The translations under genes and the position numbers were made by a program. A model generated the notes under the pieces. That model was not told where the DNA came from and ran no database searches. It worked only from the letters and a program-made list of their open reading frames with translations. From the NCBI GenBank assembly GCA_037130335.1, contig JBAXTD010000001.1, positions 103,419 to 167,418 on the forward strand: DNA of 64,000 nucleotides, written 5' to 3'. This document shows positions 31,693-33,314 of the stretch, in pieces; the first letter of the stretch is position 1; each line of letters opens with the position of its first letter. Source of the stretch: a bacterium (lineage in GTDB: Bacteria > Patescibacteriota > Minisyncoccia > Phycocordibacterales > UBA9973).

Positions 31693-33314
<1,622 letters not shown>

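Follow-up and report, generated by a model that had tools for sequence, protein, structure and literature searches.

A Parcubacteria-type 16S rRNA gene without the anti-Shine–Dalgarno core, in a window whose genes lack Shine–Dalgarno motifs

Described lineages with lost, hidden or bypassed Shine–Dalgarno pairing

Pairing between the Shine–Dalgarno (SD) motif of an mRNA and the 16S rRNA's anti-SD sequence is the textbook means by which start codons are found, and few known RNA sequences are as conserved as the anti-SD core, CCUCC. Leaderless-rich bacteria, unlike the clade described here, keep an intact anti-SD and use SD motifs for their leadered genes. In Bacillus-type rrn operons the 16S trailer begins with an SD-like AAGGA(G), to which the anti-SD is paired.

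No more than 48 % of the Parcubacteria were found to carry CCTCCT at the 3′ end of the 16S, and the rest were suggested to do without SD helices (Tsurumaki et al. 2022, RNA 28:1041, PMC9297842); those without the motif overlap the group lacking uL1, and bS21 is often absent (PMC9297842). The window analysed here, a stretch of DNA of 64 kb taken at its full length, shares both the radiation and the trait, as its 16S rRNA is of this affiliation and lacks CCTCCT. The window is an instance of the published clade-level trait, and the finding is correct but known (PMC9297842); SD use in mRNAs, leaderless-type promoter spacing and a tail–trailer hairpin do not appear in the passages of that paper used here.

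The motif was also reported missing in 15 of 1,182 genomes, which lack SD signals (Lim, Furuta & Kobayashi 2012, PMC3457768): some Flavobacteria, insect endosymbionts (Carsonella, Sulcia, Blattabacterium) and hemotropic Mycoplasma. These genomes resemble the window in a core decay that is mainly C-to-U or C-to-A (TCTTC in M. haemofelis, CTTCA in the window), in having no G-rich SD signal upstream of their genes (60 genes in the window) and in small genome size (PMC3457768). They are, however, a few host-restricted lineages, whereas the present loss lies in another phylum and spans a large, diverse environmental clade. In the Bacteroidia the anti-SD is present and is sequestered by bS21, bS18 and bS6 (PMC9976891); SD-independent initiation, probable in the window, and A-rich, unstructured start regions are common to them and the window, but CCUCC is retained there and gone here.

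The 16S rRNA gene, its 3′ tail and its surroundings

The 16S rRNA gene lies at 31691–33316 (+). It was matched by the Rfam model RF00177 (SSU_rRNA_bacteria) over model positions 1–1533 with 1360.7 bits against a threshold of 50, untruncated, and is therefore a full-length bacterial SSU rRNA. Compared with the Rfam model it has two insertions, one of about 32 nt close to the 5′ end (31770–31801) and one in the 3′ major domain of about 26 nt (approximately 32931–32956), which together bring its length to 1626 nt.

A 22-mer from the 530 loop (GTGCCAGCAGGAGCGGTAATAC) was found in 119 stretches in a scan of one genome per species, and the labels of these are almost all Parcubacteria, Paceibacterota, Nomurabacteria, Kaiserbacteria or similar CPR. 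The window 16S is 82–88 % identical to its nearest relatives sharing this loop and falls inside their neighbour-joining tree, beside a group with the tails GGA(A/U)UAAUUCAAUUUGAA. By its 16S rRNA (530-loop signature, identity and tree), the organism is assigned to the Parcubacteria/Paceibacterota (CPR). The 530-loop pseudoknot (32173–32212) carries a compensated double change, GTGCCAGCAGGAGCGG, and reads CUCCUAA ... CAGGAGCGG in place of the usual CGGCUAA ... CAGCCGCGG; this change falls in the 515F primer site, and the 22-mer is common to at least 119 Parcubacteria-type genomes. CPR with a canonical tail mostly have CAGCAGCAGCGG in this loop.

The gene ends in GGAUUACUUCAAAU (33303–33316, corresponding to E. 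coli 1529–1542 in the cmscan alignment to the model end), where the consensus end is GGAUCACCUCCUUU. In a focused scan of the 3′ end, this tail was aligned to the Rfam consensus GGAUcACCUCCUUu at a posterior probability of 1. Numbered as in E. coli, the core differs by C1536U and C1539A; outside it, C1533U turns the GAUCA box into GAUUA, and the terminal UUA is replaced by AAU. The CCUCC core, which is common to nearly all members of RF00177 though not required for membership, is absent from the window 16S; its position (33309–33313, E. coli 1535–1539) is occupied by CUUCA. An ENA metagenome contig and the Logan assembly of a separate run (SRR7053525) both have exactly this tail and the 100 nt that follow it, and two independent assemblies that agree rule out a local assembly error. 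The first-pass annotation had described a degenerate anti-SD tail, a description that the full-length Rfam alignment and the two assemblies bear out; the ACUUC that it gave for the core names the same bases but is set one position too far to the left.

The helix preceding the tail, h45, consists of the arms CACGGGUAGC (33280–33289) and GCUGCUCGUG (33294–33303) around a GGAA loop (33290–33293), all on the forward strand, and is as well formed as had been claimed. Across 73 distinct relatives, 99.9 % of the h45 cells are paired, with two-sided changes at six pairs. The gene is further bracketed by a precursor leader–trailer helix found by an exact-complement search: its 5′ arm, UAUUUUGUUCCGUUUA (31640–31655, +), is a perfect 16-nt complement of the 3′ arm at 33455–33470 (+). 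Such a 16-bp helix is what encloses a normal pre-16S and indicates a properly embedded rRNA gene, and the position of the 3′ arm implies that the primary transcript reaches at least 150 nt beyond the 16S end. Folding of the whole leader against the trailer was uninformative (−90 kcal/mol against −86 for shuffles).

No 23S, 5S or tRNA gene was found elsewhere in the 64-kb window, and the 16S is thus unlinked. A solitary 16S carrying insertions of 32 and 26 nt might be taken for an rRNA pseudogene in decay, for a chimera or for a misassembly where contigs were joined. Such an origin is extremely improbable and effectively refuted by the full-length 1360-bit match with all helices aligned and h45 perfect, by the flanking 16-bp helix and by the identical sequence in two independent assemblies. 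Moreover, an unlinked 16S is the rule at related loci: a 23S adjoins the 16S in one of 239 related stretches, as determined by blastn with the E. coli 23S.

Loss of the core is shared by the relatives, whose 3′ tails had been named as a comparison to be made: 71 of the 76 that have the 530-loop signature and a readable 3′ end lack CCUCC. Within the tail, U1537 and C1538 (33311–33312) are nearly invariant among the relatives, and positions 1532–1536 and 1539–1542 vary. These data bear on the idea that the real anti-SD is located elsewhere, either because the mature 16S extends to a downstream CCUCC or because a second copy with a canonical tail exists and the window copy is minor. The mature 3′ end is itself inferred from the sequence, the precursor runs at least to 33470, and the visible part of the genome is 64 kb with a single 16S copy, all of which leaves room for this idea; we nevertheless regard it as very unlikely. 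Neither CCTCC nor CTCC occurs in 33290–33700, a segment that takes in the entire trailer as far as the next ORF, so that the trailer holds no hidden anti-SD; this is the downstream segment that the first-pass annotation had considered as a counter-case. The degenerate tail is common to 71 relatives from different MAGs, and the SD-less genes described below match the lost tail. CPR genomes usually carry a single rRNA copy, which also counts against a second one.

Several further features were noted around the gene. After the upstream gene, at 31414–31440, stands a terminator-like hairpin, AAAAACCCTTCAATTTGAAGGGTTTTT, of which 12 nt (31423–31434) are exactly complementary to the tail CTTCAAATTGAA (33309–33320); this is probably a coincidence, as both are near-palindromes. 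A class A RNase P RNA was identified at 36824–37234 (+) with 109.5 bits against a gathering threshold of 100, and is 411 nt long for a model of 367 positions. Genes for rRNA-related enzymes near the 16S encode RNase J (25720–27804, −), a SpoU-family rRNA 2′-O-methyltransferase (9917–10723, +) and RsmE, of the m3U1498 methyltransferase family (60973–61671, −). Directly after secA follows an apparent integrated mobile element (42334–55166), with a GC content of 0.41–0.47 against about 0.36 elsewhere; its genes encode a serine recombinase (42334–43914, with a 4-nt overlap at the secA stop), a tyrosine integrase, an HTH protein, an AbiEii toxin and an rve transposase. Two ORFs on the reverse strand, 5343–6446 and 4680–5321, lie 21 nt apart and jointly make up one HlyD-family membrane-fusion protein, with a lipoyl-like N-terminal part and an HlyD_3 C-terminal part; they may be a split gene or a pseudogene. 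The ORFs 8008–8394 (+) and 63286–63963 (−), 55 kb apart, match complementary halves of the AI-2E transporter profile (positions 19–126 and 114–326) and may represent either the remains of a single disrupted gene or a pair of truncated paralogues. A NUDIX gene, a P-loop kinase-like gene and another NUDIX gene stand in tandem at 56557–58086 (+), each starting exactly 3 nt past the preceding stop, and a further NUDIX gene lies at 12176–12739.

Shine–Dalgarno motifs in the window and in CPR relatives

Window genes were defined by taking the longest ORFs, of 100 aa or more and without mutual overlap, with the first ATG as the start (a naive start rule; n=60). A motif was scored as SD-like if AGGA, GGAG or GAGG was present 3–13 nt before the start, and internal in-frame ATGs served as the control. 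By this measure an SD-like 4-mer precedes one of the 60 window starts, against 7 % of internal in-frame ATGs; in 50 kb of E. coli K-12 (locus L120), treated by the identical crude pipeline, the values are 39 % and 4 %. When any candidate start within the first 40 codons was allowed, an SD was found for 6 of 60 genes in the window and for 22 of 41 in E. coli. Only 7–15 % of the bases at most positions from −30 to −1 of the window genes are G. Across the whole window strong SD words are by no means rare; that they are missing ahead of starts is therefore a matter of position and not an effect of base composition. Motif and spacer counts were preferred over duplex energies, which are noisy with a tail of 13–20 nt and separate even the E. 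coli control poorly (p=0.087).

The same counts were made in the relatives. At 71 loci without the anti-SD (306 genes), SD-like motifs precede 10.8 % of the starts and 11.4 % of the internal ATGs, and strict 5-mers 4.6 % and 5.0 %, respectively. A control group of CPR with a canonical tail was obtained from a metagenome scan for a CPR-type h45 followed by GGATCACCTCC (403 genes); it replaced five canonical-tail loci from the genome scan, which had given only 22–23 genes, some of them spurious ORFs. None of the metagenome stretches has the standard bacterial 530 loop, and they are therefore CPR-like. Here SD-like motifs were counted before 13.9 % of the starts and 8.6 % of the internal ATGs (p=0.002), strict 5-mers before 9.2 % and 3.0 %, and the histogram of SD spacers peaks at 6–8 nt. 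Across these CPR, SD use is therefore low; it can be detected in those that have retained the anti-SD and is absent from those that have lost it. This contrast within the CPR is a modest addition to the published trait, for which RNA-level data are needed.

The altered tail might instead have acquired a new specificity, ACUUCAAAU then pairing with another SD-like mRNA motif such as GAAG, UGAAG or, through G-U pairs with CUUC, GGAG. In favour of this, CUUC could still pair with either GAAG or GGAG, the clade hardly varies at U1537 and C1538, and one gene (19541) has TGAAGG upstream. Such a change of specificity is nonetheless most improbable. Predicted duplexes of the window's own tail are weaker with its upstream regions (−2.37 kcal/mol) than with those of internal ATGs (−2.77 kcal/mol), and G is scarce upstream of the starts (7–15 % at most positions from −30 to −1). 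In the 71 relatives, complements of the own tail are not enriched upstream: they are no commoner than with tails permuted among loci, 6–23 % of the tail permutations reaching the observed value. This null result points to a correlated loss and not to a change of specificity; tail and mRNAs lost the pairing jointly, with no replacement.

The statement in the first-pass annotation that the genes lack SD motifs holds, given 1 of 60 in the window and 39 % in the E. coli control, and its reading of SD-independent initiation is supported by all sequence tests, no SD enrichment being found in the window or in the 306 genes of the relatives. The same annotation had called the tail co-evolved. This fits insofar as tail and SD motifs were lost together; it does not extend to an upstream complement of the altered tails. 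The finding of a 16S rRNA without an anti-SD together with genes without SD motifs is therefore confirmed as real, and is one already published for this bacterial group.

Start regions, promoter spacing and the proposed explanation

The start regions of the window genes (−25 to +25) fold at −3.5 kcal/mol, against −7.2 kcal/mol at internal ATGs (p=4.5e-14), and have a GC content of 27 % against 40 %. They are A-rich at −13 to −4 and at +4 to +12. Bacteroidia prefer A at position −3 as part of a Kozak-like context, which the window does not show at this position (U in 52 %, A in 23 %). The base at −1 is a pyrimidine in 83 % of the 60 genes and U in 62 %, in agreement with the pyrimidine/purine rule of transcription start sites, provided that many mRNAs have the AUG as their 5′ end. 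U at −1 is favoured in both CPR control groups as well (45 % and 59 %).

The spacing between a −10 box and the ATG was used as a proxy for leaderless transcription, a box 6–8 nt before the AUG being the geometry expected if transcription starts at its A. Among 177 first-in-operon genes of the relatives without the anti-SD, 33 have a −10-like hexamer at a spacer of 6–8 nt before the start codon; the rate in the control is 2 %. This peak is about sevenfold over the neighbouring spacers and is also seen in GC-rich loci. Among the 53 genes of these relatives with a box at this spacing, 49 % have the extended −10 element TGn (background 6–8 %) and 94 % start with ATG. No −10 box peak at 6–8 nt was found in canonical-tail CPR. 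With TGnTAnAAT placed 6–8 nt before the ATG in about one fifth of their genes, the relatives without the anti-SD resemble, in this spacing, leaderless-rich Mycobacterium, Deinococcus and many archaea.

In the window itself, 14 of 60 genes have a −10-like box at a spacer of 5–9 nt, and five of these 14 boxes carry TGn. The boxes are only about twofold over spacers of 10–19 nt, and chance hexamers are common in AT-rich DNA; a leaderless signal in the window is thus suggestive only. Candidate leaderless-type starts read from the box spacing are the ATG at 8014 (TGa-TATACT, 6 nt; 8002–8016, +), the ATG at 29948 (TGt-TATAAT, 8 nt; 29934–29950, +) and the ATG at 62312 (TAAAAT, 6 nt; 62310–62324, −). 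At 9853 a putative start with a short or absent leader has TGa-TACAAT at 9 nt (9851–9868, −), and the secA start at 39824, which has no SD, is preceded by TGc-TAGAAT at 9 nt (39809–39826, +). Eleven window genes begin 0–11 nt past an upstream stop codon, an arrangement that fits re-initiation or coupling.

The promoter data are open to a different interpretation, in which SD pairing is lost but nearly all genes are leadered, the 30S subunit being loaded through bS1 or standby binding on A/U-rich, unstructured 5′ UTRs as in the Bacteroidia; on this view, chance matches in AT-rich DNA would account for the −10 boxes that lie near the AUG in the window. The A-rich, unstructured start regions would suit such loading, as would the only about twofold enrichment of spacers of 5–9 nt over 10–19 nt in the window; the short bS1 of the CPR, with 3–4 S1 domains (PMC9297842), was counted on the same side. 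A largely leadered clade is possible on these grounds, if doubtful, as it accounts poorly for the sharp, about sevenfold peak at 6–8 nt in the relatives without the anti-SD, GC-rich loci included and with TGn at 49 %, for the lack of that peak in canonical-tail CPR and for TGn on 5 of the 14 boxes in the window. Among the papers available to the search, none discusses leaderless initiation in CPR, Parcubacteria or Patescibacteria, which is not proof of novelty. The leaderless-type promoter spacing of the relatives without the anti-SD is a modest addition, and one that calls for data at the RNA level.

A candidate mini-hairpin between tail and trailer lies at 33310–33320 (+), in which UUCA (33310–33313) would pair with UGAA (33317–33320) across an AAU loop. 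In a register-free test on 73 distinct tails, 89 % gave a stem of 3 bp or longer with U1537/C1538 as its anchor, as against 32 % once shuffled, and the own trailer performed better than swapped trailers in 300 of 300 permutations. The arms vary within the clade lacking the anti-SD and yet match (UUCA/UGAA in the window, CUCA/UGAG, UCC/GGA and UUA/UAA elsewhere), and about three to four independent compensatory switches were mapped on the 16S tree. Considerable evidence also speaks against the hairpin. The stems, 3–4 AU-rich bp, are thermodynamically marginal, with single-sequence folding z-scores near 0. A fixed-column count of pairs in an ungapped alignment was no better than column shuffles, likely because the loop length varies between 3 and 4 nt and shifts the 3′ arm between columns. 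A strand test of G-U against A-C pairs was uninformative (mean stem score 3.59 with G-U allowed, 3.90 with A-C allowed). Support for the hairpin thus comes only from the register-free permutation test and the tree-mapped switches.

In 80 % of the canonical-tail CPR the corresponding sequence is CCTCCTT-(tct)-A[AG]GGAG, so that the anti-SD pairs with an SD-like trailer start. Bacillus-type rrn operons and canonical-tail CPR are alike in this respect, with a short hairpin between the last bases of the 16S and the first bases of the trailer; the stems of the clade without the anti-SD differ in being short and AU-rich (3–4 bp), unstable alone and predicted from sequence. The tail–trailer hairpin, a modest and weakly supported addition, is regarded as a lead and not as a result, and is possibly a 3′ maturation element. 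One could go further and assume that the former anti-SD persists as the 5′ arm of a conserved tail–trailer hairpin, which is retained by the mature 30S subunit and stands in for the SD helix in the platform cleft, in a clade living mainly by leaderless initiation and re-initiation. We consider this extended version highly improbable; to our knowledge, a regime of mainly leaderless initiation with re-initiation has not been described for any large free-standing bacterial clade.

The explanation favoured here, which we hold to be likely, is that the window carries a functional, unlinked CPR 16S rRNA whose core has decayed from CCUCC to CUUCA, as the core has in its clade, and that SD:anti-SD pairing is out of use, the mRNAs having neither SD motifs nor a replacement motif. 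Initiation would then proceed by routes of three kinds: AU-rich, weakly structured start regions would leave the AUG accessible; some promoter-proximal genes would be read from leaderless or near-leaderless mRNAs with a −10 box 6–9 nt before the AUG; and tightly packed operon genes would be reached by re-initiation or coupling. Because CPR with a retained CCUCC already make little use of SD motifs, the loss resembles the final stage of relaxed selection. It was probably aided by the frequent absence from CPR of bS21 and of Era, which reads GAUCACCUCC. Era, binding GAUCACCUCC, is missing from most CPR (PMC10582724, PMC12641178), and its absence fits the relaxed GAUCA box of the window 16S. Pfam scans found no ribosomal protein, initiation factor or Era gene in the 64-kb window. 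Any constraint remaining on the tail may be the small hairpin with the first trailer bases, as in canonical-tail CPR (CCUCCUU-ucu-AAGGAG).

The window adds an independent confirmation of the trait, together with a contrast within the CPR between a weak SD peak where CCUCC is present and none where it is absent. For practical work, starts in these genomes will be misplaced by gene finders that rely on SD models, and tools for expression in CPR should avoid reliance on SD sites. A large environmental clade without an anti-SD shows that the SD mechanism is dispensable, and offers a natural system in which its replacement can be studied.
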